From positions 4,952-68,951 of the forward strand of contig JAISAH010000084.1 of assembly GCA_031266805.1 (NCBI GenBank): a stretch of DNA of 64,000 nt. The letters run 5' to 3'. Origin of the DNA: Gracilibacteraceae bacterium. Its GTDB lineage: Bacteria > Bacillota > Desulfitobacteriia > Desulfitobacteriales > Syntrophobotulaceae. The translations under genes were made by a program, and so were the position numbers. A model generated the notes under the pieces. The model was not told where the DNA came from. It did not search any database and saw only the letters and a program-made list of their open reading frames with translations. This document shows, one piece after another, positions 24,306-39,507 of the stretch (positions within the stretch are counted from its first letter, which is position 1; every line of letters begins with the position of its first letter).

Positions 24306-24605
24306 TTAGACGTCAATTTCCAGCAAAAATTGGCTGAGCGTCTTTCCATGCGGGTCAATAGCCAGCGACCGGGTAACACCTCCTCCTAACGCACCATGCA
24401 TAACAAAGTTCAAGGCGCCAATGGAAGGGATCTCATACCGCAAAACATCTCCGTGAACGATATCTTTAAAGAAGTTTTTGACTCGCGTCGCCGTGATTTT
24501 GTCAGCAATCAGTTCATAGTCTTTCATATTGTAAACGATTACTGAAATATTAGAAATATCGCCTTTGTCACCCGTTCGCGAATGAGCAATTTCGAGCAAT
24601 TTCAT
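24306..24605 (-). CDS. DUF4387-like small partner protein of the AtuA-like protein
   Basis: 99 aa: MKLLEIAHSRTGDKGDISNISV.... Directly abuts the stop of the upstream 447-aa gene. This pairing is the usual DUF1446/DUF4387 arrangement. Confidence 0.6.
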   Translation of the reverse strand: MKLLEIAHSRTGDKGDISNISVIVYNMKDYELIADKITATRVKNFFKDIVHGDVLRYEIPSIGALNFVMHGALGGGVTRSLAIDPHGKTLSQFLLEIDV

Positions 24606-25949
24606 TTAAACCTCCATATACTCCACATTGATGTTCACGTCTTCACCCGGAATCAAAATCGACAGAACGCTAACCACTCTTTTTACGCTTTCAACGCGCC
24701 CGCCACCTCCGCCTGGGCCGTTTAAGACATTGGAACCGCATTCATATATTATTTCTTCTGCTATTCTTTTATTCTTAACTCTTATGCTTACTCGCGCTCG
24801 CACTTCAGAAAGCGCTTGTTCACATGGCGGTCTCCTGCCTGGCAGCAAGGAATTGATTCCCATAATGTCGCTTCGCAGTTCTTGTACGGATTCCCCATAC
24901 ATTGCTTCCACCCGTTTTTTAACGCTCGCGACTAGGAGTTCGGCCCGTTCAACGCATTTCCAGCCGCCGTAACTGACCTCAATAGTGGCGATATAGCTGT
25001 CCAGATAGCCCACGGAGACCTTGAGGGTATCCGGTTTAGGCTTGCCAGTCACACCGGTCACTTTCACTCTGTCTTTTGCGATTTCCTCAAAAGATATTTT
25101 GCTGCAGTCAGCAATAACATCCGGAGTTAAATAATTTGCCGGATCATGGATTTCATATAATAGCTGCTCTTTGCAAGTCGCTGTTGTCACACAACCGCCG
25201 GCTTCTTCCAGCTTGGTTATAAAAACTTCTCCCCGCTCATTTATTTCAGCAATTGGAAACCCAAGATTCCAGAGATCTGGAACTTCTTTTTTTCCGGGTA
25301 CAGCGAAATATCCGCCCGAAACCTGAGCGGAACACTCTATCAAGTGACCGGCGATAGCGCAAGTCGCGGTCTTATCTAAAGAGTTCCGCCAACCAAATCG
25401 GTATATCGCGGGCGCCATAAAAAGCGCTGTATCTGTGCTGCGTCCGGTGATGACCACATCAGCGCCGTTCTCTAAGGCTTCATAAATACCTTCATAACCA
25501 ATATACGCATTTGCTGATACAATATAGTCTTTCAGATCTCCTAGTTTCAGATTCGGTTTTTCCATGAGCGGACACTCATAGTATTTATCAATTCTGCTAA
25601 AAATATCATCCCCATAGACAGCTGCAACTTTTAACGGCAGTTGATGTTTGGCGGCAATCTTGACAGCCAGCTCCGCCGCCGCTCGAACATTTGCCGCCCC
25701 CATATTTGTTATGACTTTGACATTGTGCTGATAAGCCAAGGGCAGTGCTTTTTCCAAGCGATATTCAAGCATCGTGTTATAGCCTTTGCTCGGATCTTCG
25801 AGCTTTCTCAGTTGCGCTAAAGAAATCGTTCTTTCCGCAAGGCATTCGAAAACAATGTAGTCTATATTGCCTTTAACAATTAGGTCCAGTGCCGGCTGAA
25901 GACGATCGGTTTCCATCCCCGCTCCCGCGCCAATGCGAATTGTTTCCAA
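24606..25949 (-). CDS. AtuA-like (DUF1446, acyclic terpene utilisation family) protein
   Basis: 447 aa: IRIGAGAGMETDRLQPALDLIVKGNIDYIVFECLAERTI.... Size and N-terminal pattern fit DUF1446. TTG start after AGGAGG. Confidence 0.65.
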   Translation of the reverse strand: METIRIGAGAGMETDRLQPALDLIVKGNIDYIVFECLAERTISLAQLRKLEDPSKGYNTMLEYRLEKALPLAYQHNVKVITNMGAANVRAAAELAVKIAAKHQLPLKVAAVYGDDIFSRIDKYYECPLMEKPNLKLGDLKDYIVSANAYIGYEGIYEALENGADVVITGRSTDTALFMAPAIYRFGWRNSLDKTATCAIAGHLIECSAQVSGGYFAVPGKKEVPDLWNLGFPIAEINERGEVFITKLEEAGGCVTTATCKEQLLYEIHDPANYLTPDVIADCSKISFEEIAKDRVKVTGVTGKPKPDTLKVSVGYLDSYIATIEVSYGGWKCVERAELLVASVKKRVEAMYGESVQELRSDIMGINSLLPGRRPPCEQALSEVRARVSIRVKNKRIAEEIIYECGSNVLNGPGGGGGRVESVKRVVSVLSILIPGEDVNINVEYMEV

Positions 25950-26124
25950 TGTTTACCTCCTGTGTTCATGAACAGTTTTCCTTGTGTCGAAAGAATTATG
26001 ACAGTCTTTTCGAACTATTGCAAATATTAAAATTCAATGCTGGATATAACACAGAGTTATACTGAGAGTTTCATTCACACGATAACGCCGCGGCCGCATG
26101 GTTATTTTTTCCACAAACAAAGTA

Positions 26125-26938: not shown

Positions 26939-28897
26939 ATGAACCAGCCTGTCCGCACGAAGGAAGAGTGGGCGCGCCTGCATAGCCGGCCTGAGCGCTG
27001 GGGGATGTTGGGCGAAACGGTTCGGGCGGCCTGGGAGCGCAGCGCCGGTTACAATATAGATTTTATGAACGCGCTGCCGAAGAAATTGCCGGCGGCGAAT
27101 TATGAGCAGATCAAACGTCAGACCAAGCGGCTTTTTGTTTATGCCAACAGTGTTTTGGAGCCGTTGGCTCGAAGCGATTTGCTGGAAAATGTTGGCATCA
27201 TCCTGTTTGCTAATAACGGCGCCTTGTTGCGCCTGTACGGCGGCGAGCGTTTTTTGACTTGGGCGGCGGCCAGCCGGATTGAAGCGCGAACCAAGTGGGC
27301 GGAAGATCAGATCGGCGCGAATGTTTTTTCCGTCGGGATGCGTCAAGGCGCTTGCTTGCAGATGTCGGGCTTTGAGCATTACGCCGCTTTTCTCACCGGG
27401 GCCGCCTTTGTGTTCGCCCCGATGCGGCTGAACAACGGCGACATTATGTGCAGCATCGTATTGGCCGCGCCGGTAAAATACGCGAGCGAACTGTCGCCGG
27501 CTCTGGCGGTCTCTATCGTGCGCGGCATAGAACTGCAGCTGTTTTGGTTCACTCAGGTCGATAACACCGCCGACGCTGCCGAGGGTGTCGGCAACATTTC
27601 CCTGGATCAGTCCATCGGCGGCAACCGCATCCTGACTCTTAGCGAGGAAGTGAAAAAGATGCTGTCGCTGCCGCGGCGGGACTATTTTTACGAGGCGCTG
27701 GACGACGTCATCGAGCGAAGGCCGGAAAATAAACAGTTTTGGGATATCATCAACAACCGCGTGCGCGTGAATGAAAAAGCGGTCCAGCTGCTGCAGGGCG
27801 GCAAAAACGTTTTTTTCTATATGAGTACGGCGCCCTATAACGAAGAAGGGTTCCACATCAAGGGCATAAGCGTTTCCATGAATTCGCTCAAACATGTCGC
27901 CAAATTGGTGACGAGAGTCCACGGCGACGCCGCCAGCTACAGTTTTGACGACGTGGTGCATGAGTGCGAGGCGATGGCGGACGTGATCCGCAGCGCTAAA
28001 ATGGCGGCGGCCACGGACAGCAGCATCTTGCTGATGGGAGAAAGCGGAGTGGGAAAGGATGTCCTGGCCCAGGCCATCCACCGGGGCAGCAGGCGCGCCG
28101 CCAGACCGTTTGTGGCCATCAATTGCGCCTCGTTTTCCAAGGATCTGATCGCCAGCGAATTATTCGGCTACGAGCCGGGCGCTTTTACCGGCGCCCGCAA
28201 GGAAGGCAGTATCGGCAAATTTGAGCTGGCTAACACCGGCACGCTGTTTTTGGATGAAATCGGCGATATGCCGCTGGATTTGCAGGCGCTGCTGCTGCGG
28301 ATCCTGGAGGAGCGCAGTTTTCGCCGCGTGGGCGGCAATAATCTCATAGCGACCGATGTGCGCGTTATCACCGCGACCAATAAGAAGCTATGGGAATCCA
28401 TTGAAACCGGCATGTTTCGGGAGGATCTTTTTTACCGCCTGGGCGTCGCGCGCATTCAGATACCTCCTTTGCGCAGCAGAAACTCGGATATCGTCCTGCT
28501 GATCAATCACGCTTTGACCCGCATCTGCGCCCGGCTTGACAAACCGGCGGTCAGCATGGGGGAGGACGCGATCGCTTTTTGTAAGCGTTATACGTGGCCG
28601 GGCAATGTGCGGGAGCTGTTTAATCTTTTGGAAGGCATTATCAGCACCTCCGCCTCGGCGGTCATCAGCGAAGCGGAAATCAGGCGATACCTCGGCGCCG
28701 GTGATTTTGCGGCCGCCGCGCCGCCGCGCTCTTTCCCGCCGGAACGGGAAGATGAGGCGCCCACGCTCTATGACGAGAGACGGGATTTCGCTCAGATGCT
28801 GAAATTATGCCGCAATAATAAGACAAAGGCGGCGCGGAATTTGGGAGTGCCGCTCAGGACGTTTTACCGTAAACTGAAACGATACGGCATGATGTAG
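26939..28897 (+). CDS. Sigma-54-dependent enhancer-binding protein with AcoR/GAF-like sensor domain
   Basis: AAA+ core GESGVGKDVLAQAIH, GAFTGA motif (ELFGYEPGAFTGA), FLDEIGDMPLDLQALLLRILEE. C-terminal Fis-type HTH (NKTKAARNLGVPLRTFYRKLKRYG). No receiver domain. Confidence 0.92.
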   Translation: MNQPVRTKEEWARLHSRPERWGMLGETVRAAWERSAGYNIDFMNALPKKLPAANYEQIKRQTKRLFVYANSVLEPLARSDLLENVGIILFANNGALLRLYGGERFLTWAAASRIEARTKWAEDQIGANVFSVGMRQGACLQMSGFEHYAAFLTGAAFVFAPMRLNNGDIMCSIVLAAPVKYASELSPALAVSIVRGIELQLFWFTQVDNTADAAEGVGNISLDQSIGGNRILTLSEEVKKMLSLPRRDYFYEALDDVIERRPENKQFWDIINNRVRVNEKAVQLLQGGKNVFFYMSTAPYNEEGFHIKGISVSMNSLKHVAKLVTRVHGDAASYSFDDVVHECEAMADVIRSAKMAAATDSSILLMGESGVGKDVLAQAIHRGSRRAARPFVAINCASFSKDLIASELFGYEPGAFTGARKEGSIGKFELANTGTLFLDEIGDMPLDLQALLLRILEERSFRRVGGNNLIATDVRVITATNKKLWESIETGMFREDLFYRLGVARIQIPPLRSRNSDIVLLINHALTRICARLDKPAVSMGEDAIAFCKRYTWPGNVRELFNLLEGIISTSASAVISEAEIRRYLGAGDFAAAAPPRSFPPEREDEAPTLYDERRDFAQMLKLCRNNKTKAARNLGVPLRTFYRKLKRYGMM

Positions 28898-28990: not shown

Positions 28991-29046
28991 GGCGCGTTAT
29001 GGCACTATATGGCGCGTTATGGCATGATATTGGCGTGAAATGGCAC
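28991..29046 (+). promoter_or_regulatory. Three direct repeats GGCG(C/T)G(T/A)(T/A)ATGGCA(C/T) at 20-21 bp phasing; candidate enhancer (UAS) for the EBP
   Basis: Copies at 28991-29005, 29011-29025 and 29032-29046, lying 80-135 bp upstream of the -24/-12 promoter. Confidence 0.4.
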
Positions 29047-29125: not shown

Positions 29126-29141
29126 TGGCATGAGAATTGCA
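29126..29141 (+). promoter_or_regulatory. Sigma-54 (-24/-12) promoter
   Basis: TGGCAT-GAGAA-TTGCA matches the TGGCAC-N5-TTGCA consensus. It is 85 nt before the first operon gene and directly downstream of an EBP gene. Confidence 0.72.
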
Positions 29142-29225: not shown

Positions 29226-30017
29226 ATGATCACAGTGGGAATCGACAGCGGCAGTCAAAATATAAAAGCGGTGGCGCTGCAGGACGGCGCGGTCGTCGCC
29301 AGAGCCAAGATCCTGGCGGAATTTGACGCGGTGAAAGCGGCGGAAGCGGTTTACGAACTGGTCTTGCGGCAGGCGGGCCTGACTGAGAGCGATGTGGAGG
29401 CGGTGGCGGCGACCGGAGCGGGACGCGCCCTTGTGCCGTTTGCCGTTTTATGTATCAACGAAGTCAGTTCCGCCTCCAAAGGGGCGCGCATGGTCAGGCC
29501 CGGCGCGGAGGTGGTGATCGACCTTGGGGCGGAGAGCAGCCGCGCCATCCGCCTCCAGCCGGACGGCAAGGTCAAAAAATACGAGATCAACGATAAATGC
29601 GCTTCCGGCGCCGGGACGTTCATCGAAACGATGGCCCGCGCCCTGCAGATGGAAATCGAGGACATGGGGCCTTATTCGCTCCGGCATACGCGGGAAGTGC
29701 CCATGAACGCTCAATGCGTCGTTTTCGCGGAATCGGAAGTCGTCTCGCTGATCCATCAGCAAGAGTCCAAGGAAAATATCGCCTACGCCATCCATATGGG
29801 CATCGCCAACCGGGTCGGCGCGCTGTTCCGCCGTCTGGGACTCTCTGACGAACTGGTCCTGATCGGCGGCCCGGCCCTCAATGTGGGTCTGGTCGAATGT
29901 ATGGGCAAGGAATCGGGCCGGAAAATATTCGTGCCCGAGTATCCGGATTTTATCAGCGCTATGGCCGCGGCCGCGGCGGCGGCCGAAAACGCGCGGGGAG
30001 GTGTCGCCGGTGGCTGA
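29226..30017 (+). CDS. BcrAD/BadFG/HgdC-family ATPase (electron-activating component), subunit 1
   Basis: 263 aa: MITVGIDSGSQNIKAV...NDKCASGAGTFIE.... ASKHA fold with cluster-bridging Cys context. Confidence 0.87.
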   Translation: MITVGIDSGSQNIKAVALQDGAVVARAKILAEFDAVKAAEAVYELVLRQAGLTESDVEAVAATGAGRALVPFAVLCINEVSSASKGARMVRPGAEVVIDLGAESSRAIRLQPDGKVKKYEINDKCASGAGTFIETMARALQMEIEDMGPYSLRHTREVPMNAQCVVFAESEVVSLIHQQESKENIAYAIHMGIANRVGALFRRLGLSDELVLIGGPALNVGLVECMGKESGRKIFVPEYPDFISAMAAAAAAAENARGGVAGG

Positions 30018-30921
30018 CGGGCATATCGAGAAAGTAGAATATTGGCGCTGGGAGGAATCTCGGTGGAAAAATCCGGAAATCCCGGACTGGCGCGGCTCTT
30101 TGGTGACGGCGGGCGTAGATATAGGTTCCACCAGCACTCAGGCCGCGATCATGACGGACGGCCAGCTTTACGCTTACGCCAGCATCCGGACGGGTTCCAA
30201 TAGCCCCTCGTCCGCCGTGGACGCCATGAACTGGGCGCTGGAGGGCACGGAGCTGACGCCGGCAGATTTGCACTATACGGTGGGCACGGGCTACGGACGG
30301 GTCAACGTGCCTTTTGCCGACAGCACCGTGACCGAGATCACCTGCCACGCCAAAGGGGCCAACTATATCTACGGGCCGACGGTGCGGACGCTGCTGGATA
30401 TGGGCGGGCAGGACTGCAAGGCCATCCACTGTGACGAAAACGGCGCCGTTACCTCGTTCATGATGAATGACAAATGTGCCGCCGGCACCGGGCGCGGCAT
30501 GGAGGTCATCGCCAATCTGCTGGCCGTCCACGTGGAGGATATCGGGGAGATGTCTTTCCGCATCGACGCCGAGCCGCCGCCGGTGTCCAGCATCTGCGTG
30601 ATTTTCGCCAAAACGGAGGCCACCAACCTGATGCGTTCGGGCTGGTCCAAGGAAAAAGTGCTGGCCGCTTACTGTCACGCGATGGCGCTGCGCGTCGCGC
30701 GTCTGCTGGAGAGAAACGAAATGCAGCTGGATTTTGCCATCACCGGCGGCATCGCCAAAAACAGCGGCGTGGTGAAGCGCATCGAGCGGCTGATCGGCGC
30801 GGAGGCGCTGCGGACCGATTACGACGCGCAGATTGCCGGCGCTCTGGGCGCGGCGCTGATGGGGAAAGCGCTGCACGAAAAAAAGGGCGGTAAGTCCGGG
30901 CGACGAAGGGAGGGCGGCTGA
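30010..30921 (+). CDS. BcrAD/BadFG/HgdC-family ATPase, subunit 2 (distinct paralog with an N-terminal extension of about 35 aa)
   Basis: ...LVTAGVDIGSTSTQAAI...NDKCAAGTGRGMEV...ITGGIAKN. The GTG at 30010 follows GGAGG and overlaps the upstream stop. The exact start is uncertain; 30001 is an alternative. Confidence 0.8.
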   Translation: MADGHIEKVEYWRWEESRWKNPEIPDWRGSLVTAGVDIGSTSTQAAIMTDGQLYAYASIRTGSNSPSSAVDAMNWALEGTELTPADLHYTVGTGYGRVNVPFADSTVTEITCHAKGANYIYGPTVRTLLDMGGQDCKAIHCDENGAVTSFMMNDKCAAGTGRGMEVIANLLAVHVEDIGEMSFRIDAEPPPVSSICVIFAKTEATNLMRSGWSKEKVLAAYCHAMALRVARLLERNEMQLDFAITGGIAKNSGVVKRIERLIGAEALRTDYDAQIAGALGAALMGKALHEKKGGKSGRRREGG

Positions 30922-30923
30922 AG

Positions 30924-31208
30924 ATGATCGCCAATTACGGCTGCGAAGACGGTTCCGGAGTATATTATATCCGGATCGACACGGGAAAATGCGGGGATTG
31001 CCAGCTCCGCGGCTGCGTGGGCGGATGTCCGCGGGAGCTGTTTGTGATAGAGGAGGATGATTGGGGCGACGAGATGGCCGTCGTGCGGGAAGACAGGCGC
31101 CGGACCCTGCAAGCCGCCTGCGCGGCCTGCAAACCCCAGGATCGCCCGCCGGACCCTTTGCCTTGCCAGAGCGCCTGCGGCAGACAGGCGATCGAACACA
31201 GCTGGTAA
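30924..31208 (+). CDS. Small ferredoxin-like Cys-rich protein
   Basis: 94 aa with C-x2-C-x4-C-x3-CP, then CAAC-x11-C-x3-C. Plausibly a 2x[4Fe-4S]-type protein with non-canonical spacing. Confidence 0.55.
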   Translation: MIANYGCEDGSGVYYIRIDTGKCGDCQLRGCVGGCPRELFVIEEDDWGDEMAVVREDRRRTLQAACAACKPQDRPPDPLPCQSACGRQAIEHSW

Positions 31209-31269
31209 ATAGTGGATATCTAAATACTCAGTGAGTTTTAGAGACATCCCAAGTGAGGAGGATATCAAA

Positions 31270-32058
31270 ATGGACATGAAGACGGAGTACCGGAGCATCA
31301 AGTATGAGACGGCTGACCGCGTCGCCACGGTCACTATGTGCGTTCCGGAAAAGATGAACGCTCTGGACGCGAGACTGGGGGAAGAACTGGCGTCGGCGCT
31401 GGCGCGGGCCAAAGCGGACGCCGCGGTCAAAGTCGTCGTGCTGACTGGGATGGGGAACGCTTTTTGCGCCGGCGGCGACTTGACGGGTTTTCCGGCGCTG
31501 GATCTCCAGACCGCCGCCGAAGGCATCCGTGATTCGGCCCGGTCGCTGGTCGGCGCTTTTACCAAATTGCCGAAACCGATCATCGCCGCGGTCAACGGTT
31601 TTGCCGTGGGGGCGGGATTGTCTCTGGCCCTGATCAGTGACATCGTGCTGGCTTCGGACAAGGCTGTGTTCGGCGCCGCTTTTGTCAATGTGGGCCTGAT
31701 CCCGGACATCGGCTCGCTCTTTTATCTGCCGCGGCTGATCGGGCTGCCCAGAGCGAAAGAACTGGCTTTTACCGGGCGCAATCTCAGCGCGCAGGAAGCT
31801 CTGACGATGGGCATCGTCAACCGGGTGACGGAAAACGACGCGCTGGCGGCGGAGGCGGCGAAACTGGCCGGGAAACTGGCGAGGCAGCCGGCCCTGGCGA
31901 TGGCGCAGGCCAAAGCGCTGCTCCACGCCAGTCTGGAGATCGGCGTCGACGAACTCATCGAGCTGGAGGGCATGGCCCAGGGGATCTGTATGCAGTCGGA
32001 AGATTCCCGTGAAGGCGTCGACGCGTTTTTGCACAAAAGGAAACCAAATTTTAAATAA
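31270..32058 (+). CDS. Enoyl-CoA hydratase/isomerase (crotonase) family protein
   Basis: ...VVVLTGMGNAFCAGGDL...PIIAAVNGFAVGAGLSLAL.SDI.... GAGGAGG lies 8 nt before the ATG at 31270. Confidence 0.88.
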   Translation: MDMKTEYRSIKYETADRVATVTMCVPEKMNALDARLGEELASALARAKADAAVKVVVLTGMGNAFCAGGDLTGFPALDLQTAAEGIRDSARSLVGAFTKLPKPIIAAVNGFAVGAGLSLALISDIVLASDKAVFGAAFVNVGLIPDIGSLFYLPRLIGLPRAKELAFTGRNLSAQEALTMGIVNRVTENDALAAEAAKLAGKLARQPALAMAQAKALLHASLEIGVDELIELEGMAQGICMQSEDSREGVDAFLHKRKPNFK

Positions 32059-32072
32059 CCGGGAGGGCACAA

Positions 32073-33212
32073 ATGAGTACGGAAACATTGTTTGAAAAAG
32101 CCGAACTGCGAAATTCCTCCGTGAAGGCCTGGAAAGAGCAGGGCAAAAAAATCATCGGCACGGTCTGCTGTCATGTGCCGGAGGAGATACTGCACGCCGC
32201 CGGCGCGATGCCTTATCGCCTGCGGGCCACGGGAGTCACGGATCTGAGCGAAGGCGACACATGGATGTCCACTTTTACCTGCAGCTACGCCCGCGGGACT
32301 CTGCAGTATCTGATCGACGGAACATTCGACTTCATGGACGGCGTGATTTCTTCGGACGGCTGCCTGATGGCCGGGCGTATTTTCGATAATTGGAAATATG
32401 TGGATGGCAACGCGGAGAAAAAGGAATTCTATTTGAAACAGATCGCGGCCCCGCGCATGAATAACGAAAACGCCGTCAGATATTACCGCGACTATCTGGA
32501 CCAGATGCGGACCGAACTGGGCGCTTATATGGGCGTGGAGATCACCGATGAGAAGATCCGGGCCTCCGTCGCCCTTTACAACGAGACCCGCCGGCTGATC
32601 CGCGCCCTGTACGATCTGAGCAAAAGCGACGCTCCCGTCGTCAGCGGGACCGAGCGCCTGAAACTCATCCTAGCCGCGTCCTCAATGCCCAAGGAAGAAT
32701 ACAATGAGATGCTGAAAGACTTTTTGGCAAGGGCCGGGAGCAGAGCCCCGATCAAGAACTATCGCGCCCGGATCATGCTCGTCGGCAGCGCGCTGGACGA
32801 CCCGGAGTATATCAAAGTCATCGAGGATAAGGGCGGTCTGGTGGTCACTGACGCCCTGTGTTTCGGCACCCGCTATCTCTGGGAGCCGGTCGAGCTGGAA
32901 GGCGGCGACGTCCTGACCTCCATTGCCGCTTCTTACCTGAAACGCCCCGTATGTCCGCGGATGGTGGATCTGCACGACGAGTTCGGGGATCTGATAGTTA
33001 ATTTTTGCCAGGATTTCAAAGTGGACGGCATCATCTACGAGCGCGTCAAATACTGTGAGATCTGGGGCGGCGAGGGTCTGTATTTCGGCGAGCACAAGGG
33101 CATGAAGGAAGCGGACGTCCCGCTGATCTTGCTGGAGCGCGAGGAGATCATGACCAATATCGGCCAGCTGGCCGTGCGCGCCGAAGCGTTTATCGAAATG
33201 ATCGAGAAATAA
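32073..33212 (+). CDS. HGD-D family subunit (BcrC/BzdN or HgdB/HadC-like)
   Basis: 379 aa: ...KIIGTVCCHVPEEILHAAGAMPYRL...; conserved Cys at VCCH, FTCSY, DGCLM and PVCPRM. Confidence 0.85.
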   Translation: MSTETLFEKAELRNSSVKAWKEQGKKIIGTVCCHVPEEILHAAGAMPYRLRATGVTDLSEGDTWMSTFTCSYARGTLQYLIDGTFDFMDGVISSDGCLMAGRIFDNWKYVDGNAEKKEFYLKQIAAPRMNNENAVRYYRDYLDQMRTELGAYMGVEITDEKIRASVALYNETRRLIRALYDLSKSDAPVVSGTERLKLILAASSMPKEEYNEMLKDFLARAGSRAPIKNYRARIMLVGSALDDPEYIKVIEDKGGLVVTDALCFGTRYLWEPVELEGGDVLTSIAASYLKRPVCPRMVDLHDEFGDLIVNFCQDFKVDGIIYERVKYCEIWGGEGLYFGEHKGMKEADVPLILLEREEIMTNIGQLAVRAEAFIEMIEK

Positions 33213-33236
33213 CCGAGTAAACTAGGAGGAAAAACC

Positions 33237-34490
33237 ATGAGCAATTTGATTGGGACTATTTCGCGTCAAGTTGACAGCGTCATCGAACACGCCAAGGAAA
33301 AATACGCGGATCAGATGTGGATGTTCGATGTGCAGAAAGCGTCCTGGGACGCCGTTTACCACGCCCATGACGAGGGCAAACGCCTGATCTATGTCGGCGC
33401 CTGCGCCCCGGTCGAACTGATTTACGCCTTTGACTGCGTGCCGTTCGTGCTGGACATGATCCCCACCCGTCTGGCCTCCACGCCGGAAGTAGCCGCCCGG
33501 TATATCGATCTGGCGGAGAAATATATCGCGCCGACGATGTGCGGCATCGATAAAGTGGATATCGGCGCCATCCTCTCCGGGGACATGCCGGACAAACCGG
33601 ACGCTTTTATCTATTCCACCGTTCCCTGCGACAACTCCCGCGTGGCCTACCCCTTCATCTGCGATCGGCTGGGATGTCCGTCCTATTGCATCGACGTCCC
33701 TTTCCGCAAAAACGAAATGGGTTTTGACTATATGGCCAGGCAGTATAAGGAAATCATCGTCTTCCTGGAAAAACTGACCGGCAAGAAGCTGGACTGGGAT
33801 AAGTTCCAGGAGATCATGACGATTTCCAACCAGACAAACGATCTGATGAACAAGATCGCCGACCTGCGCAGGATCACGCCCTGCCCGCTGCCGGGGCGCC
33901 TCTTGGTCCTGAATGAGATGATCCCGGGCATGGTGGGGCATCCGGCTATGCTTTCCTATCTGGAAGCGCAGTACGCCATCGGTCAGGACGCGGTCGCCAA
34001 AGGCCTGGGCGCGGTCAAAGAGGAAAAATACCGCGTATCCTGGCTGCAAAACATGCTGTGGTCCAACGTGGGCATCCTCGACTGGATGGAGCGGAAGTTC
34101 GGGGCGGTCCTGGTCATGGACGCCTTTGGCTATCAGCGCGGGCATGTTTTCCGGGATATAGACGATCTGGACACGATCTGCGTCGATTTTGCCAAAAAAG
34201 GGCTGGCCCTGCCCATGATCCATGGCGCCTCCGGCCCGGTCGAGGACTATATCGATCTGGTGGAAAACACGATGGGCGACTACAATGTCAGCGTATCCAT
34301 GTTCATCGGCCACGTGGGCTGCAAACACACCTGGGCCGCCGCCAAGATCATCACGGACATGATCCAGGAAAAATTCGGTCTGCCGACTTTATATCTGGAT
34401 GTGGACGCCGTGGACGGACGTTACAAGAAGACGGATGAGATCAGGGCCCTTATCACCGAATATATGGAAACAATAGAAGAAAATAAGTGA
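33237..34490 (+). CDS. HGD-D family subunit (BcrB/BzdO or HgdA/HadB-like)
   Basis: 417 aa: ...LIYVGACAPVELIYAFDCVPFVLD...TMCGIDK...VPCDNS.... Paralog of the previous gene. Confidence 0.85.
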   Translation: MSNLIGTISRQVDSVIEHAKEKYADQMWMFDVQKASWDAVYHAHDEGKRLIYVGACAPVELIYAFDCVPFVLDMIPTRLASTPEVAARYIDLAEKYIAPTMCGIDKVDIGAILSGDMPDKPDAFIYSTVPCDNSRVAYPFICDRLGCPSYCIDVPFRKNEMGFDYMARQYKEIIVFLEKLTGKKLDWDKFQEIMTISNQTNDLMNKIADLRRITPCPLPGRLLVLNEMIPGMVGHPAMLSYLEAQYAIGQDAVAKGLGAVKEEKYRVSWLQNMLWSNVGILDWMERKFGAVLVMDAFGYQRGHVFRDIDDLDTICVDFAKKGLALPMIHGASGPVEDYIDLVENTMGDYNVSVSMFIGHVGCKHTWAAAKIITDMIQEKFGLPTLYLDVDAVDGRYKKTDEIRALITEYMETIEENK

Positions 34491-34497
34491 GAGACGT

Positions 34498-35253
34498 ATG
34501 GACAGAGTAAGATCAATAGCGGTGACCGGTAAAGGCGGTACGGGAAAAACCGTGCTGGCGACTTTGCTGATCAGGCTGCTGGCGGAGCGTTTTCCGGGCC
34601 GGGTGCTGGCCATAGACGCCGATTCGGCCATGAGCCTGCCTTATACCTTGGGACTGGAGCTAAAGGGTACGGTGAGCGAGGTCCGGAAGAACATCATCGG
34701 TTCCCGCGAAGCCAAGGAAAAACTAAATGATGGCCCGACCAAGTCCGTGATGCGCGGTATACTCACCAGCGGCGGCGGGTTTGACCTGCTGGTCATGGGC
34801 CGGCCGGAGGAACCCGGTTGTTTCTGCGCCGTGAACGAATTGCTGCGCTATGGGATAGATACGCTGATCACGGACTACGAAGCGGTGGTGATCGACGGGG
34901 AAGCGGGACCGGAGCAGCTGAACCGGCGCGTTCTGAAAAGCATCGACGTCCTGCTGGTGGCGGCGGATATGTCGGCGCGCAGTCTGGAGACGGCGGCCGG
35001 CATCATCCGGGTGGCGAACAGCTATGAAGACGGTCTGCGCGTGGGGCGAGCCGGGCTGATCCTCAACCGGGTGAGGGGCGACCGGCCGGCGGAGGAGGTT
35101 TTGCGGCGGATCGGATTGGAAATTTTTGGAACTTTGCCGGAGGATGATCTGCTGAACGAGTATGACAGGGAAGGTCGCTCGCTCCTGGAACTGCCGCTGG
35201 ATTCGCCCTGTCCGCTGGCGGCGCGGGAGATACTCGACCGGATATATGAATGA
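34498..35253 (+). CDS. CooC/AcsF-type MinD-family metallochaperone ATPase with CxC motif
   Basis: Deviant Walker A GKGGTGKT, the CooC metal-binding CxC in GCFCAVNE, and EAGPEQL (CooC GAGIEHL equivalent). 251 aa. Confidence 0.8.
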   Translation: MDRVRSIAVTGKGGTGKTVLATLLIRLLAERFPGRVLAIDADSAMSLPYTLGLELKGTVSEVRKNIIGSREAKEKLNDGPTKSVMRGILTSGGGFDLLVMGRPEEPGCFCAVNELLRYGIDTLITDYEAVVIDGEAGPEQLNRRVLKSIDVLLVAADMSARSLETAAGIIRVANSYEDGLRVGRAGLILNRVRGDRPAEEVLRRIGLEIFGTLPEDDLLNEYDREGRSLLELPLDSPCPLAAREILDRIYE

Positions 35254-35267
35254 AGGAGGAATGTATT

Positions 35268-36572
35268 ATGCCGGATTGGAAAAAATTTGTTGAAGAGAGA
35301 ACTGTTTCTGTTGAGGAAGCGGCCGCCACAGTCGAGTCAGGCGATCGGATCTGGATGGGCAGCACGATCTGCGTGCCTTACGGCGTGCTGGACGCTCTGG
35401 CGGAGCGTTATGAAGAACTGAGGGACGTGCTTTTGATTGCCAGTATGTATCTGGCGCCGTTTAAGATTTTGAACGATCCCAAATACAAAAAAGCGTTTCA
35501 TACCATGAGCATCTTTCCCAACGTGCTGGAACGCGCGTCCGCCAAAATCGGCACCATTGATTTTCATTCCGTCCCGTACACCTATTGGGAACGCGCGGCG
35601 CAGGAAGTTTACAAAGTCAACTCCGTCATTACGGAAGTCTGTGAGCCGGACGAGGAGGGCTATGTTAATCTGAGCGCCCTGGGCGTAGGTTGGACCCCCA
35701 ATATCATGCGTAACGCCCCCAAACTTATCGCGGTCATAAACAAATACAATAAGCCGATCCGGGGCGACGCCGTCAAGGTCAAAGTTCCGGTCAGCCGCTT
35801 TCAGTACTTTGTCCGTCACGATCACCCGCTTCCTTCCCTGCCCACCAACCCGCCGGAGGAAATTGACGAGAAGATCGCTTCGTATATTTTACCGCATATT
35901 AATCAGGGAACCACGTTCCAGATCGGCATGGGCGGTTTGGGCGACAGTATCGGCCTGGGTTTGCGGGAAAAGAAGGGCTTGACCATTCGCACCGAGATCA
36001 TGACCAACTGCATGGTGGATTTGCTGGAAAGCGGCTCTGTGGATCATATCTACGCGGCGGGCGCGTTTGGCGATCAGCGTTTGTATGATATATTCGACGA
36101 TCCGCGAGTGACGTTCAGCGACTGCTGGGATCAGCTGGAGCCGGAATCCATCGGCAAAGTACCCAATTTTGTCTCGATCAACGCCACGATGATGACGGAT
36201 ATCATCGGCCAGTGCTGCTCCGAGGCGATCGGCGTCACTCAGTATTCCGCCATGGGCGGGCAGATCGACTTTGTGCGCGGCGCGGCTAAATCCAGAGGCG
36301 GCAAATCATTTATGTGTCTGCGCTCCACCCGGAAGGACAAGGAAGGCAAAGTCCATTCCAACATTGTGGCCAAACTTCCGGAAGGTTCCATTGTCAGCAC
36401 GCCGCGCTATGACGTCATGTATCTTGTCACTGAATACGGCGTCGCCGACGTATTCCTGCGCAGCAATAAAGAGCGGATCAAAGCCATCATCAGCATCGCG
36501 CATCCTGATTTTCGCGAAGAGCTCAAAGCCCAGGCCATCGCCCAAGGCAATATCTTCGCGGACGATTTTTGA
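35268..36572 (+). CDS. Family-I CoA-transferase (acetyl-CoA hydrolase/transferase, 4-hydroxybutyrate / butyryl-CoA:acetate type)
   Basis: ...INATMMTDIIGQCCSEAIGVTQYSAMGGQIDFVRGA.... GGAGGA lies 8 nt before the ATG at 35268. Confidence 0.82.
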   Translation: MPDWKKFVEERTVSVEEAAATVESGDRIWMGSTICVPYGVLDALAERYEELRDVLLIASMYLAPFKILNDPKYKKAFHTMSIFPNVLERASAKIGTIDFHSVPYTYWERAAQEVYKVNSVITEVCEPDEEGYVNLSALGVGWTPNIMRNAPKLIAVINKYNKPIRGDAVKVKVPVSRFQYFVRHDHPLPSLPTNPPEEIDEKIASYILPHINQGTTFQIGMGGLGDSIGLGLREKKGLTIRTEIMTNCMVDLLESGSVDHIYAAGAFGDQRLYDIFDDPRVTFSDCWDQLEPESIGKVPNFVSINATMMTDIIGQCCSEAIGVTQYSAMGGQIDFVRGAAKSRGGKSFMCLRSTRKDKEGKVHSNIVAKLPEGSIVSTPRYDVMYLVTEYGVADVFLRSNKERIKAIISIAHPDFREELKAQAIAQGNIFADDF

Positions 36573-36591
36573 TTTTGGAGGAAACAAGGTA

Positions 36592-37725
36592 ATGTACGAT
36601 TTGACACAGGAAGAGCAGCTCATCATCCAGAGCGTGCGCGAGTACGCGGAAAACGTCATGGCCCCGGCGGCCAAGGAAGCCGACGTCACGGGCGAGTTTC
36701 CCTGGGAGGTGATAAACAAGGGGATCGAGCTGGGGCTGCACGCCCTGTCGATCCCGGAGGAATACGGCGGCCCCGGTATGTCGGCCCTGATGTCGGCCGT
36801 CATATCCGAGGAATTATCCAAGGCCTGCGCCGGTATGGCCACGACGCTGGGGGCCACGGGGCTGTCCTGCTACCCGGTTTTGATCGCGGGTACGGACGAG
36901 CAGAAAAAACTTTATTTTGACATCATTCAGTCCGGAAAACTGGGCGCTTTTTGCCTGACCGAGCCCGGCGCCGGTTCCGACTCCGGCTCGGTGGCCGCGA
37001 CCGCCGTGCGCGAAGGCGGCGAGTATGTGCTGAACGGCAATAAGACATTTATTACCAACGGCGCCGTGGCCAGCGTTTACACGGTGTTTGCCACGGTGGA
37101 CCGCGCCAAGGGTTTGAAGGGACTGAGCGCTTTTATCGTGGAGCGTGACCGGGCCGGCGTCAGCGTGGGCAAAGAAGAAAACAAGATGGGCATCCGCGCC
37201 TCCAACACCACGGACGTGATTTTCACGAACGTGCGGATACCGGCGGGCCATCTTCTCGGCAAAGAAGGCGACGGATTCAAGATCGCCATGAAAACGCTGG
37301 ACTCCTCCCGCGCGGGCGTAGGGGCCCAAGCCGTGGGTATATGTCAGGCGGCGCTGGAAGCTTCCATCCGCTACGCGAACGAGCGCAAGCAGTTCGGCGC
37401 GCCTATCTCCGCCAACCAGGGCATCCAGTTCATGCTGGCGGATATGGCTATCCAGACGGAGGCGGCCAGAGCGCTGGTGCGTCACGCCTGCCGCCTGCAG
37501 GACGCCGGTCAGCCTTACGGCAAGGAAGCGGCCATGTGCAAGACCTTTGCCGGCGACACCGCCATGAAAGTGACGACCGACGCCGTGCAGATATTCGGCG
37601 GTTACGGCTACAGCCGCGATTACCCGATCGAAAAACTGATGCGCGACGCGAAGATCATGCAGATTTTTGAGGGCACCAATCAGATCCAGCGGGTCGTCGT
37701 CGCCGGCCATATACTGAGACCATAG
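36592..37725 (+). CDS. Acyl-CoA dehydrogenase (Bcd/AcdB-like)
   Basis: MYDLTQEEQLIIQSVREYAE...CLTEPGAGSD...ERKQFG...IFEGTNQIQR. The ORF-track N-terminus is read-through from the previous gene frame. Confidence 0.92.
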   Translation: MYDLTQEEQLIIQSVREYAENVMAPAAKEADVTGEFPWEVINKGIELGLHALSIPEEYGGPGMSALMSAVISEELSKACAGMATTLGATGLSCYPVLIAGTDEQKKLYFDIIQSGKLGAFCLTEPGAGSDSGSVAATAVREGGEYVLNGNKTFITNGAVASVYTVFATVDRAKGLKGLSAFIVERDRAGVSVGKEENKMGIRASNTTDVIFTNVRIPAGHLLGKEGDGFKIAMKTLDSSRAGVGAQAVGICQAALEASIRYANERKQFGAPISANQGIQFMLADMAIQTEAARALVRHACRLQDAGQPYGKEAAMCKTFAGDTAMKVTTDAVQIFGGYGYSRDYPIEKLMRDAKIMQIFEGTNQIQRVVVAGHILRP

Positions 37726-37805: not shown

Positions 37806-38573
37806 ATGAAGATCATTGTTTGTTATAAATGGACTTTGGACGAAGCGGATATTCGGGTCGACGCCGCCACGCGGGCGGTATTGAAAGAGCGGGCCAAGTA
37901 CCGGATCAGCCCCTATGACCGCAACGCCGTGGAATGCGGCGTGCGCCTCGCGGGAAAGAGCGGCGGCGAAGTCGTGGCCCTGAGCGTGGGTACAGCCGAA
38001 TTGGGAAATTCTGCCAAAGATATTCTCTCCCGCGGCGTCACGCGGCTGGCCTGGCTCGGCTGCCAGGAATTAGAAGACGCGGACGCGGCCGGCACGGCCC
38101 GTGCGTTAGCCGCCGCCGCGCGTAAAATCGGCGATTATGACCTTATTGTTTGCGGCGAGGGTTCCAGCGACAGCTATTCCCAGCAGACGGGCCCGCGCCT
38201 GGCGGAACTGCTGGATATTCCCGTCGTCACCTGCGCCAGTGAAATATCCCTGGACGGGAGCAGACTCACGGTGAAACGCAAACTGGAAGAAGGTTTTGAA
38301 ATAACGGAAACGACGCTCCCTGCTCTGATCACGGTGCTGCCGGATATCAACGAACCGCGCATCCCCGGGCTCAAAGAGATATTGGGGGCGAGCAAAAAAC
38401 CGGCGGAACGGTTTTCAGCGGAGGATCTGGGACTGGACCCGGAGACGCTCAAACCGCTGGCGCGCCGGGACAGCCTGCTGGGCACGGCGACGGACCGCCG
38501 CCGGATCGTGCTGAAAGGGGAGGGCGCGGCGGCGGAACTTTTAACTATTCTGAAACAGGAAGGTTTTTGCTGA
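37806..38573 (+). CDS. etfB: Electron transfer flavoprotein beta subunit
   Basis: MKIIVCYKWTLDEADIRV...ISPYDRNAVE...VCGEGSSDSYSQQTGP... Confidence 0.92.
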   Translation: MKIIVCYKWTLDEADIRVDAATRAVLKERAKYRISPYDRNAVECGVRLAGKSGGEVVALSVGTAELGNSAKDILSRGVTRLAWLGCQELEDADAAGTARALAAAARKIGDYDLIVCGEGSSDSYSQQTGPRLAELLDIPVVTCASEISLDGSRLTVKRKLEEGFEITETTLPALITVLPDINEPRIPGLKEILGASKKPAERFSAEDLGLDPETLKPLARRDSLLGTATDRRRIVLKGEGAAAELLTILKQEGFC

Positions 38574-38592: not shown

Positions 38593-39507
38593 ATGGCGGA
38601 TTTTTGGGTGATCGCGGACAAGCCGGGCGTCGCCTGTGAACTGCTGGCGTGCGCCAAGGAGCTGGTCCGGGGCGAAACGCTCGTATGCCTGACCGGTGAT
38701 CAGGAAACGGCGGCGGAAGCGGCCGCGTGCGGCGCGGATCGCGTCGCCTTGTTTGAGGGCGGGGCGCGGCCGGAATCATATGTGGCCGATTGGAGCGAGA
38801 AAGCGCGGCGGGAGCAGCCGGCGGCCATTTTGCTGGGGGCCGGCCGGCGGGACAAGGAGATCGCCGCCCGGCTGGCGGCGCGGCTGGAGGCCGGACTCAT
38901 TTCCGACTGCGTGAAACTGGAGCGCGGTCAGGGCGGTTTTTACTCTGAGCGCTATATGTACGGCGGTCTGTGTTTGGCCGGGGAAACGACCGCACGGACT
39001 CCCTTCATGGCGACGATGGCGGCGAGGGGGACCGAGCCTCTCCCGGCGGGCGCCGCGGCGCCGGTGGAAAAAACGGCGGCGGCGCGGGAGGATCCGGTCA
39101 AACTGGTGGAGCTGCAGCCTCATCAGAGCGCCTCGAATCTCATGTCCGCCAAAGTGATAGTCTGCGTGGGCCGCGGCCTCGCGCAAAAAGAAGATCTAAA
39201 GCTGGCTGAGGATCTGGCGCGGGCTCTGGGCGGCGAAGTGGGCTGCACCCGGCCTGTGGCGGAAGAGCGCCACTGGTTGCCGGAGGAAAGCTATATCGGC
39301 ATAACCGGGAAAAAACCGGCGCCGGACCTATATCTCACCTTGGGCGTTTCCGGCCAGATCCAACATTTGTCAGGCGTGCGCGACAGCAAGTTCATCGTGG
39401 CGGTGGAAAAAAACGAAACCGCGCCGATCGCGGAATCAGCCGACTACACGGTCGTCGGCGATCTGTACGACGTCGTGCCGCGGCTGCTGGCGGGACTCAA
39501 GGCGTGA
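38593..39507 (+). CDS. etfA: Electron transfer flavoprotein alpha subunit
   Basis: ...VIVCVGRGL...GCTRPV...ITGKKPAPDLYLTLGVSGQIQHLSG...IVAVEKNETAPI.... Confidence 0.92.
   Translation: MADFWVIADKPGVACELLACAKELVRGETLVCLTGDQETAAEAAACGADRVALFEGGARPESYVADWSEKARREQPAAILLGAGRRDKEIAARLAARLEAGLISDCVKLERGQGGFYSERYMYGGLCLAGETTARTPFMATMAARGTEPLPAGAAAPVEKTAAAREDPVKLVELQPHQSASNLMSAKVIVCVGRGLAQKEDLKLAEDLARALGGEVGCTRPVAEERHWLPEESYIGITGKKPAPDLYLTLGVSGQIQHLSGVRDSKFIVAVEKNETAPIAESADYTVVGDLYDVVPRLLAGLKA

Follow-up and report, generated by a model that had tools for sequence, protein, structure and literature searches.

Class I benzoyl-CoA reductases (BCRs) are the textbook case of an ATP-driven 'biological Birch reduction' and are thought to be limited to facultative anaerobes. 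In the Bzd-type enzyme the BzdN subunit binds an [8Fe-9S] double cubane through six Cys residues, a cluster otherwise known only in DCCP (PMC11971306) and proposed to serve as a two-electron store (Fuchs et al. 2025, PMC11971306), and Cys95, Cys128 and Cys380 of BzdO are the ligands of an open-site catalytic [4Fe-4S] cluster (PMC11971306); Tyr97, Tyr298 and Gln274 of BzdO form the thioester triad and His131 is catalytic. BCR clusters typically also encode a ferredoxin (bzdM). Here we analyzed a stretch of 64,000 nucleotides from a Gracilibacteraceae bacterium (contig JAISAH010000084.1, positions 4,952 to 68,951), hereafter called the window, in which an operon encodes two ATPases (ATP1 and ATP2), a small ferredoxin-like protein, a crotonase, two HGD-D subunits (beta and the presumed catalytic alpha) and a CooC-type ATPase. 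Judged from its sequence, the enzyme of this operon is widespread in strict anaerobes and is new in its catalytic half and its CooC-type partner, with a known, Bzd-type electron-activating half; it is neither a canonical BCR nor a canonical 2-hydroxyacyl-CoA dehydratase.

The electron-activating half was the more readily placed. A first-pass annotation of the window had described two distinct ATPase paralogues of 263 and about 303 residues, the latter with an N-terminal extension, and this was borne out, with both proteins matching Pfam BcrAD_BadFG at a mutual identity of 31%. The open frame of ATP2 begins at 29881, and a GTG at 30010 gives 302-303 residues as in its homologues, including an N-terminal extension of about 30 residues that corresponds to that of BzdQ. 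ATP2 scored above the NCBIfam equivalog cutoff for BzdQ (TIGR03192, 382.1 bits versus 380.2), in an alignment of residues 6-291 to model positions 7-292 of 293 that thus covered the extension. It was 56-58% identical to BzdQ of Aromatoleum and 68-80% identical across family members, and ATP1 was 42-43% identical to Aromatoleum BzdP; authentic BzdP has no NCBIfam model and gave a generic match profile identical to that of ATP1. In a bootstrapped neighbour-joining tree, ATP2 and its homologues grouped with BzdQ (98%) and ATP1 and its homologues with BzdP (99%), with HgdC, HadI, MbdP, MbdQ and DCCP-R outside both clades, which argues that these are not HgdC-type activators, the grouping that the first-pass annotation had wished to see checked. 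A recent duplication, raised at the same time, is ruled out by the 31% mutual identity together with the separate BzdP and BzdQ clades. Both ATPases retain the pair of Cys residues that holds the bridging [4Fe-4S] cluster of HgdC-type ATPases (motifs NDKC and AQC in ATP1). By profile and tree, the predicted heterodimer is an old Bzd-type pair, orthologous to BzdP/BzdQ.

The Bzd references came from two Aromatoleum loci, found with a BzdN sequence read from a PDB alignment, whose N, O and Q proteins reached 854, 966 and 680 bits, well over the cutoffs of the respective Bzd models. Both loci (L076, Aromatoleum sp. CIB, CP011072; L077, A. aromaticum, CP091977) have the gene order N-O-P-Q, followed by genes for an acetyltransferase, an SDR protein, an acyl-CoA dehydrogenase, a TRAP transporter and a ligase, unlike the bzdM...bzdA order of the classical bzd cluster. 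Their BzdN proteins are 88-90% identical to the sequence transcribed from PDB 8S02, for which the best database match was at 95%, and they may represent a paralogous bzd set.

HGD-D subunits of 379 and 417 residues were present as first annotated. The 379-residue beta subunit had BzdN as its best match both in the PDB (5e-51, compared with 2e-36 for HadC) and among NCBIfam models, in the latter case at 185 bits against a cutoff of 453.8 (TIGR03190), which leaves it outside the BzdN family at the sequence level; it reached 145 versus 700 on the HadC model and 170 versus 350 on the double_cubane model NF040772. Alignment of 105 homologues showed its residues C32, C70, C97, C263, C294 and C328 to be invariant and to coincide with the cluster Cys residues of BzdN and DCCP. 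HadC and MbdN both lack C32 and C263, and MbdN lacks C294 as well; the three-Cys pattern of HadC is thus not that of beta, with its additional C32 and C263. From this conservation we infer that beta carries an [8Fe-9S] double cubane. A further residue, Cys33 (CC pair, window positions 32166-32171), adjoins the first double-cubane ligand and is kept in 103 of the 105 family members, at a position that is not Cys in BzdN (CT), DCCP (CV), HadC or MbdN. In the neighbour-joining tree the beta family formed a clade of its own (84%, including a Rhizobium plasmid homologue), apart from HgdB/HadC/MbdN (73%) and from BzdN.

The alpha subunit is more distant from any solved protein (BzdO 2e-10 and HadB 5e-9 in the PDB search) and is 20-22% identical to BzdO. 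Using profile and full-length alignment, its C102, C131 and C362 were found to correspond to Cys95, Cys128 and Cys380 of BzdO and to be invariant in 115 homologues, which suggests a three-Cys, open-site [4Fe-4S] cluster; three of the six double-cubane Cys residues, namely the ligands of the second sub-cluster, are missing. Most of the remaining BzdO active site is altered in the alpha family, with His131 replaced by Ser/Ala/Thr, Trp46 deleted, Tyr97 replaced by Leu/Ile/Met, Tyr298 by Phe, Gln274 by Asn, Glu381 by Lys and Glu65 by Asp (Asp73 in the window), and with Leu383 likewise not kept. Alpha scored 39 versus 448.6 on the BzdO model (TIGR03191), 48 versus 750 on HadB and 49 versus 350 on NF040772. 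An AlphaFold2 model (pLDDT 87.7) matched HadB, BzdO and MbdO about equally well (TM 0.80-0.84) and beta-type chains less well, with HadB being the best Foldseek match at 1.4e-18 and BzdO following at 1.1e-16. In the neighbour-joining tree, based on Poisson distances, BzdO, HgdA, HadB and a homologue from Azoarcus KH32C formed one clade (94%) that excluded the alpha family, and the wider alpha lineage comprised 169 clusters at 50% identity (E 1e-30 or better). Neither subunit was therefore nested within the HgdA/HadB or HgdB/HadC clades, the placement in a characterized dehydratase clade that had been set out for checking. By alignment and tree, the predicted active site of alpha is not BzdO-like and the catalytic half is new; the BCR-like layout first proposed for the locus hence stood for the BzdP/BzdQ-type ATPases and the six-Cys beta, and did not hold for the active site of alpha. 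We also considered Cys216 of alpha as a fourth cluster ligand and rejected it as a general one: every member of the close family has it, but only 63 of 133 wider relatives do. One alpha-beta pair of the wide lineage was seen in an aerobic host, on the Rhizobium leguminosarum plasmid CP030763 (L075: 7637-13065), where alpha has CDN, PCPL and GCK motifs and the pair is accompanied by two different activase genes and adjoins sulfate permease and rhodanese genes.

Two genes of the operon, those for the CooC-type ATPase and the crotonase, had been overlooked in the first-pass gene list, of which the five listed genes were all confirmed; the crotonase gene falls within the span first annotated (29226-34490), and the CooC-type gene comes right behind it. 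The CooC-type ATPase had CooC1 as its best PDB match (3KJE, 8e-17), with its GCFC aligned to QCYC of CooC1 (Cys112-x-Cys114), a CxC motif that in CooC1 binds Ni or Zn at the dimer interface (PMC6006190). Both GKGGTGKT and GCFC are invariant in 42 CooC-like homologues, and the gene lies directly 3' of the alpha gene in 36 of 41 cases (median gap 78 bp). A reading as ParA/MinD was ruled out by the weak matches to such proteins (3EA0 5.8e-5, 4V03 4e-4, NCBIfam at most 40 bits) and is also countered by the CxC motif and the gene position, both of which point to CooC. CooC-like ATPases with CxC were also found beside distant relatives, as neighbour of a second six-Cys HGD-D protein (L062:647-2641, - strand), in a deltaproteobacterial-type locus with only one BcrAD_BadFG ATPase (L079:6883-10881) and in a Spirochaetota locus with two BcrAD_BadFG ATPases and additional genes for a GMC oxidoreductase, a START-domain protein and further ligases (L081:4496-10634), so the CooC link seems to belong to the wider alpha lineage as such. 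No CooC-like gene was present in the Aromatoleum bzd, Rhizobium and KH32C loci examined, no CODH or ACS (carbon monoxide dehydrogenase, acetyl-CoA synthase) gene was seen among the window open reading frames (ORFs) examined, and a literature search gave no CooC-type partner described for the BCR/2-hydroxyacyl-CoA dehydratase superfamily. No other conserved component sets the module apart as clearly as the CooC-type ATPase, which is most likely a dedicated accessory factor for maturation of a metal centre. DCCP is not known to need a helper for acquiring its double cubane in Escherichia coli. As BzdNO also obtained its double cubane in Escherichia coli without a helper (PMC11971306), formation of this cluster as such probably does not depend on the CooC-like protein.

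The dedicated Cys-rich ferredoxin first annotated between the ATPase and HGD-D genes was found as a 94-residue protein that had no Pfam or NCBIfam match and that keeps eight Cys residues in 29 homologues (CxxCx4Cx3CP plus CxxC...Cx3C), and it is probably a ferredoxin-like protein with 2x[4Fe-4S]. For the crotonase, the best solved relatives were 2EJ5 and PaaG of Thermus and E. coli (175/158 bits), compared with 134 bits for the rat hydratase. Its motifs GAGLSLAL and AFVN(V/I)GLxPD match Thermus PaaG, and GAG(L/M)SLAL and GLxPD are common to Thermus PaaG and all 14 members of the crotonase family. These motifs stand at what we take to be the positions of the two catalytic glutamates in hydratases and of the catalytic aspartate in PaaG-type isomerases, and both hydratase glutamates are presumably absent from the window protein, as in PaaG. 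Because PaaG-type motifs occupy these positions, the crotonase is read as probably an enoyl-CoA double-bond isomerase and not a hydratase. The first-pass annotation had noted the absence of Had/Oah ring-cleavage genes, in agreement with the PaaG-type crotonase being the only candidate in the window and with no Dch, Had, Oah, BadK or BadI model appearing among its 25 best NCBIfam matches; by motifs and best matches, an assignment as Dch is ruled out.

Occurrence of the module was assessed in 73 related loci, 68 of which came from a scan with one genome per species and the others from look-ups. ATP1, ATP2, beta, alpha and the CooC-like gene were held together in 26 of the 73, with the small ferredoxin present after ATP2 in 21 of these 26 complete modules, and the order was ATPase-ATPase-ferredoxin-beta-alpha-CooC. 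The two ATPase genes always occurred together, save at contig ends, with one ATPase pair per locus for up to five alpha-beta pairs. Since the same gene set and order recur in dozens of loci from several phyla, this is no chance juxtaposition. The sources were Firmicutes and Negativicutes from termite gut, digesters and groundwater together with metagenome-assembled genomes (MAGs) of Desulfovibrio, and the hosts included a series of Gracilibacteraceae termite-gut MAGs (97% identical), Desulfitobacterium dichloroeliminans, Sporomusa silvacetica, Eubacteriaceae ES3, Acetobacterium, Enterocloster and many Oscillospiraceae. In tandem arrays of the Oscillospiraceae type (L022, L023, L025, L029, L037, L041, L042, L056 and others), three to five beta-alpha pairs have in common a single ATPase pair, ferredoxin and CooC-like gene, accompanied by several CoA-transferase paralogues. 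Genes for metabolism of CoA esters accompany the module in many of the related loci (CoA-transferases, ligases, acyl-CoA dehydrogenase with electron-transfer flavoprotein (Etf), thiolases), a further partner there being a fusion of about 780 residues between 3-hydroxyacyl-CoA dehydrogenase and hydratase (HCDH-ECH). Among the scanned gene families recurring in at least three loci, with some families left unscanned, no 2-hydroxyacid dehydrogenase was recognized. An old yellow enzyme-type flavin oxidoreductase is encoded upstream in six loci (e.g. L025:4418-5416), and the MAG CAZLLK01 has at least six separate loci. A search of the plasmid collection for canonical Bcr/Bzd references yielded only uncharacterized relatives (Azoarcus KH32C, Rhizobium) and YjiLM, which were used as extra taxa. 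The literature searched gave no characterized member of the family.

Our preferred reading, in which we place about even confidence, is that the module encodes an ATP-driven, ferredoxin-fed net reductase of an acyl-CoA. The acid would enter via the major facilitator superfamily (MFS) transporter and be primed to its CoA ester by the AMP-forming ligase, with the CoA-transferase then recycling CoA, as suggested by family membership. The eight-Cys ferredoxin would reduce the [4Fe-4S] cluster bridging the BzdP-like/BzdQ-like heterodimer, where ATP hydrolysis, by orthology to BzdPQ, would drive the electrons to very low potential; they would gather on the six-Cys, double-cubane-type cluster of beta and pass to the open-site [4Fe-4S] cluster of alpha, the ligands of which are given by alignment, for a net two-electron reduction of the acyl-CoA. 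A non-conjugated enoyl- or dienoyl-CoA would probably result, which the PaaG-type isomerase would bring into conjugation; in the window, the acyl-CoA dehydrogenase and its FixAB-type Etf would then reduce it before CoA transfer frees it, and in relatives it would instead pass to the HCDH-ECH fusion and thiolase. The CooC-type ATPase would act as the accessory factor, most likely in metal-centre maturation. The BzdP/BzdQ orthologues, the ferredoxin, the six-Cys beta, the isomerase and the lack of a recognized 2-hydroxyacid dehydrogenase would all be consistent with net reduction. Because the aromatic-ring pocket and the proton-donor residues are missing, the substrate would not be benzoyl-CoA in the sense of BzdO, and may be an aromatic, alicyclic or polyunsaturated acyl-CoA. 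An ATP-coupled enzyme that reduces or dehydrates some other CoA thioester, as first suggested for this locus, agrees with these findings.

Several points weigh against the net reductase. Stoichiometric ATP-dependent reduction, and class I BCR with it, is held to be too costly for energy-limited fermenters, and the hosts here are energy-limited strict anaerobes (acetogens, fermenters, Clostridia of termite gut and digesters). Alpha lacks His131, Trp46, Tyr97, Tyr298 and Glu381 of BzdO, leaving it without a BzdO-type active site, and it falls outside the clade of BzdO, HgdA and HadB, in a large lineage (72%) of unnamed proteins in which all 169 clusters bear generic names; owing to these active-site differences and the separate lineage, inference from BzdNO stops at beta. 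The double cubane of beta is itself assigned from Cys conservation, and all trees are neighbour-joining trees with few characterized references, built without BcrABCD/BadDEFG, Lcd and Fld. The CoA-transferase, acyl-CoA dehydrogenase and EtfBA genes are equally typical of reductive 2-hydroxy-acid pathways, the best model for the dehydrogenase being acryloyl-CoA reductase, and the ligase, transferase and transporter look, by their family matches, aliphatic and not aromatic.

The best surviving alternative, which we regard as somewhat unlikely, is that the enzyme is of the 2-hydroxyacyl-CoA dehydratase type and recycles its electron within a fermentative pathway resembling those of acrylate, hydroxyglutarate or Stickland fermentation. 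The BzdP/BzdQ-like pair and the ferredoxin would then serve only to supply one priming electron, with ATP spent in catalytic amounts, and the enoyl-CoA would be reduced by the acyl-CoA dehydrogenase and Etf or be hydrated and cleaved by beta-oxidation enzymes. Such a pathway would account for the operon composition (CoA-transferase, HGD-D pair, acyl-CoA dehydrogenase and EtfBA), with AcrC as top model for the dehydrogenase, weak AcrA/AcrB matches of the Etf and a transporter resembling lactate transporters, and it would suit energy-limited fermenters and acetogens, for which stoichiometric ATP use is deemed prohibitive. HadB is moreover the best structural match of the alpha model and also has a small residue at the position of His131, and a distant archaeal relative adjoins a GlcD-type FAD 2-hydroxyacid dehydrogenase. 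However, two distinct BzdP/BzdQ-orthologous ATPase genes are always kept together, a dedicated ferredoxin is conserved, beta has six Cys residues and not the three of HadC, and alpha and beta fall outside the HgdA/HadB and HgdB/HadC clades, with scores far from those of HadB (48 versus 750) and HadC (145 versus 700); nor was a 2-hydroxyacid dehydrogenase recognized within the scanned families recurring in three loci or more. The isomerase also speaks against the route, because a 2-hydroxyacyl-CoA dehydratase gives the 2-enoyl-CoA directly, making a PaaG-type isomerase superfluous after 2,3-dehydration; such an isomerase would fit better with a reductase that releases a non-conjugated enoyl- or dienoyl-CoA.

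A genuine reductase of benzoyl-CoA or substituted benzoyl-CoA, dearomatizing aromatic acids such as lignin monomers in the termite gut, is to our judgement distinctly unlikely. Its diene would be isomerized and then either reduced to cyclohexane carboxylate or ring-opened and beta-oxidized, and the HCDH-ECH fusion, thiolase and ligase of the relatives could open the ring and carry out a pimeloyl-type beta-oxidation. Both the orthology of the ATPases to BzdP/BzdQ and the six-Cys beta, with BzdN as its top NCBIfam and PDB match, point this way, as do the second-best model of the acyl-CoA dehydrogenase (cyclohexane-1-carbonyl-CoA dehydrogenase), the many termite-gut and digester MAGs among the source genomes, and the several alpha-beta paralogues and CoA-transferases per genome, recalling the substrate paralogues of Bzd and Mbd. 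Against it stand the alpha subunit (39 versus 448.6 on the BzdO model, 20-22% identity, another lineage and loss of His131, Trp46, Tyr97, Tyr298 and Leu383), the lack of Dch, Had, Oah, BadK and BadI models among the best crotonase matches, a ligase that is not of the benzoate-CoA ligase type, and again the cost of class I BCR to fermenters; support for an aromatic substrate is thin. Lastly, a DCCP/YjiM-like reductase of a small non-CoA molecule, with the CoA genes as merely co-transcribed neighbours, would match the six-Cys beta (170 bits on the double_cubane model) and the physiological role of DCCP itself is open in the literature, but is very improbable given the conserved alpha-beta heterodimer as opposed to the DCCP homodimer, the missing second sub-cluster Cys residues in alpha, scores far under the cutoff of 350, and CoA-transferase, ligase or beta-oxidation genes beside the module in many loci of several phyla.

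The gene neighbourhoods also hold a hint as to which metal the CooC-type ATPase might serve. In 15 loci of the Oscillospiraceae type (L022, L023, L025, L029, L030, L040, L041, L051-L054, L056, L057, L063 and L066), a CsoR/RcnR-family repressor (PF02583, 5e-25) is encoded right after the CooC-like gene, with a His-rich N-terminal tail (HVHADGTAHSHEHEHEH...HPHVH) and a conserved Cys/His/Cys core (e.g. L052:20302-20679), and CoA-transferase genes come next on that strand in several loci; the window has no CsoR-like gene, having a sigma54 activator instead. In Sporomusa silvacetica (L003, CP155573), HypA and CobW/HypB-like genes flank the module, which is interrupted by genes for an amine-oxidase-type FAD oxidoreductase (465 residues) and a Fer4 protein of 399 residues, and similar FAD oxidoreductases occur in L079 and L082. 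A putative isoprene reductase operon provides a precedent for orphan Hyp/nickel chaperones, though with a different enzyme (PMC10134865). Taken together, the CxC site, the CsoR/RcnR repressor and the Sporomusa Hyp genes hint at a nickel or heterometal requirement. That the CooC-like ATPase installs nickel or another heterometal in an Fe-S centre of alpha or beta is a speculative proposal that we consider unlikely; candidate sites are Cys33 of beta and His359/Lys363/His364 around Cys362 of alpha, and one ATPase pair would in that case serve several interchangeable catalytic modules. If true, this would be the first heterometal-dependent branch of the superfamily.

The genes of the operon form one long run on the + strand, from 26.9 to 42.4 kb of the window (Table 1), and the remainder of the operon was as first annotated, with CoA-transferase, acyl-CoA dehydrogenase, EtfBA and ligase genes and an enhancer-binding protein (EBP) encoded upstream. 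The EBP has an uncharacterized N-terminal sensor region, an AAA+ domain and a Fis-type helix-turn-helix, and its homologues (45-50% identity) are encoded upstream of the same module in four related loci (L001, L006, L009, L014). The -24/-12 element in the EBP-ATPase intergenic region has one mismatch to TGGCAC-N5-TTGCW, with only three sites in the window having at most one mismatch, and the three repeats lie 80-135 nt farther upstream and are a candidate upstream activating sequence that the EBP may bind. A sigma54 promoter with upstream repeats fits control by the adjoining EBP, which is likely the activator of the operon, and the locus is best explained as a sigma54/EBP-controlled operon for metabolizing a carboxylic acid as its CoA thioester. 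The CoA-transferase is of the butyryl-CoA:acetate/4-hydroxybutyrate type (TIGR03948, 216 bits, under the cutoff), and the top NCBIfam models for the acyl-CoA dehydrogenase were acryloyl-CoA reductase AcrC (460 versus a cutoff of 640) and cyclohexane-1-carbonyl-CoA dehydrogenase (390 versus 650). The Etf subunits matched PRK12342, PRK03359 FixA and PRK11916, and AcrA/AcrB weakly; the ligase matched PRK06187 (400 bits), with no benzoate-CoA ligase model among its 25 best NCBIfam matches, and the transporter gave weak matches to bile-salt and L-lactate MFS transporters.

Table 1. Positions of the features discussed, in the window unless a related locus is named
Feature	Position	Strand	Description
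EBP	26939-28897	+	sigma54 enhancer-binding protein, 652 aa; Pfam Sigma54_activat 3e-65, AAA_lid_14, HTH_8
Repeats	28991-29046	+	three GGCGCGTTATGGCA-like repeats, GGCG(C/T)G..ATGGCA(C/T), spacing ~20 bp; read from sequence
Promoter	29126-29141	+	sigma54-type -24/-12, TGGCATGAGAATTGCA; 85 nt ahead of ATP1 gene
ATP1	29226-30017	+	BzdP-type ATPase subunit, 263 aa; Pfam BcrAD_BadFG 5e-42
ATP2	30010-30921	+	BzdQ-type ATPase subunit, 303 aa; Pfam BcrAD_BadFG 5e-57
Ferredoxin-like protein	30924-31208	+	Cys-rich, 94 aa
Crotonase	31270-32058 (alternative start 31231)	+	PaaG-type, crotonase superfamily, 262 aa; Pfam ECH_1 2.5e-64
Beta	32073-33212	+	HGD-D subunit, 379 aa; Pfam 4e-82
Alpha	33237-34490	+	HGD-D subunit, presumed catalytic, 417 aa; Pfam 1e-60
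CooC-type ATPase	34498-35253	+	CooC/CbiA-type P-loop ATPase, 251 aa; 8 bp past alpha gene
CoA-transferase	35250-36572	+	family I, 440 aa; AcetylCoA_hyd_C 3e-50
Acyl-CoA dehydrogenase	36589-37725	+	acyl-CoA dehydrogenase / enoyl-CoA reductase, ~378 aa; three acyl-CoA dehydrogenase (ACAD) domains
EtfB	37806-38573	+	FixA/FixB-YdiQ/YdiR type; Pfam ETF and ETF_alpha (EtfB and EtfA)
EtfA	38593-39507	+	as for EtfB
Acyl-CoA ligase	39538-41136	+	AMP-forming, medium/long-chain fatty-acid type, 532 aa; AMP-binding 3e-66
MFS transporter	41160-42410	+	monocarboxylate / oxalate-formate antiporter type, 416 aa; MFS_1 3e-37
Sporomusa insert and flank genes	L003: 4758-5837, 12162-13559, 16495-17694, 20313-20663		HypA, CobW/HypB-like, FAD oxidoreductase and Fer4 genes

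Just downstream of the operon, on the - strand within 42438-43353, lies a gene for an ArsR/SmtB-type regulator (42871-43353), followed by an ORF of 130 residues in which a heavy-metal-associated domain is fused to what appear to be the terminal membrane helices of a P-type ATPase; it is probably what a deletion has left of a cadA/zntA-type pump. Farther on are a 537-residue Schlafen AlbA_2/HATPase_c_4/HTH protein with a run of ENIVE-like repeats (43383-44996, -) and a 1972-residue surface protein with Listeria-Bacteroides repeats and CWB2 cell-wall-binding domains (45508-51426, +). At 13700-26000 the G+C content drops to 0.46-0.51, compared with 0.58-0.67 on both flanks. This block, mostly on the - strand, may have been acquired separately as a catabolic island; it encodes an aldehyde dehydrogenase, a thiolase, a thiamine pyrophosphate enzyme, an AtuA-family protein, a protein with metallo-beta-lactamase fold, a LysR regulator, an NMT1-like binding protein and a fused TRAP transporter.

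The locus thus joins a BCR-orthologous ATPase pair and a double-cubane-type subunit to an unrelated catalytic subunit in strict anaerobes, namely acetogens, fermenters and sulfate reducers of guts, digesters and aquifers. Should the net reductase be true, these organisms would hold a large unexplored set of ATP-driven CoA-ester reductions under energy limitation, and double-cubane proteins would gain a defined, testable metabolic setting. The dedicated CooC-type chaperone suggests cofactor chemistry that would be new to the superfamily. Culturable carriers exist in Desulfitobacterium dichloroeliminans, Sporomusa silvacetica and Eubacteriaceae ES3.

Compared with known systems, the accessory proteins each resemble one described protein in part. 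PaaG, the 1,2-epoxyphenylacetyl-CoA and delta3-delta2-enoyl-CoA isomerase (PDB 6SL9, 4FZW_C), shares with the window crotonase its fold and the GAG(M/L)SLAL and GLxPD motifs; the latter reaches 207 against the PaaG equivalog cutoff of 345, has no paaABCDE oxygenase genes beside it and follows a reductive enzyme instead of an oxygenase. CooC1 and AcsF, the nickel-insertion ATPases of CODH/ACS, have in common with the CooC-type ATPase the deviant Walker A motif GKGGxGKT and the CxC, whereas the similarity to CooC1 amounts to only about 65 bits and the partner here is an HGD-D enzyme. For the core enzyme, DCCP/DCCP-R (PDB 6ENO, 7YYL) and YjiM/YjiL of E. coli share the six-Cys pattern of beta and an ATP-dependent archerase, but the two identical subunits of DCCP each carry a double cubane and no CoA substrate is known for it, as opposed to a heterodimer within acyl-CoA metabolism in which only beta has six Cys residues. 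The Thauera-type class I enzymes MbdONQP/BcrCBAD (PDB 9G87, 9GAI) have the same heterotetrameric layout with two different ATPases, with MbdP and MbdQ outside the ATP1/BzdP and ATP2/BzdQ clades and MbdN, without C32, C263 and C294, having no double-cubane pattern.

With the 2-hydroxyacyl-CoA dehydratases (HadBC/HadI, 3O3M/4EHT; HgdAB/HgdC, 1HUX; FldBC/FldI; LcdAB/LcdC) the window enzyme shares superfamily, fold, a three-Cys catalytic cluster, an archerase-type ATPase and the operon partners CoA-transferase, acyl-CoA dehydrogenase and EtfBA. It differs in having two non-identical ATPases instead of one homodimeric activator, six Cys residues in beta instead of three Cys plus sulfide, a family-I instead of a family-III CoA-transferase, and a dedicated ferredoxin, PaaG-type isomerase and CooC-type ATPase, with no 2-hydroxyacid dehydrogenase recognized in the scanned families and with alpha and beta outside the Hgd/Had clades in trees that did not include Lcd and Fld. 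The Azoarcus/Aromatoleum-type class I BCR, BzdNOPQ (PDB 8S02, PMC11971306), has the gene order N-O-P-Q in contrast to the P-Q-fdx-(isomerase)-N-O found here, and no CooC-type ATPase in the Aromatoleum loci examined, whereas this ATPase is conserved in the present module; the hosts here are strict anaerobes, no Dch/Had/Oah set is co-located, the window having only the PaaG-type crotonase, beta reaches 185 bits against the cutoff of 453.8 and alpha is of another lineage. The two systems nevertheless have in common the orthologous ATPases, including the N-terminal extension of BzdQ, an operon-encoded ferredoxin, the six double-cubane Cys residues of beta, and the three open-site Cys residues of alpha with an acidic residue at the position of Glu65. 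In terms of alignment and phylogeny, the predicted electron-activating half of the enzyme is thereby a member of the Bzd-type class I lineage.

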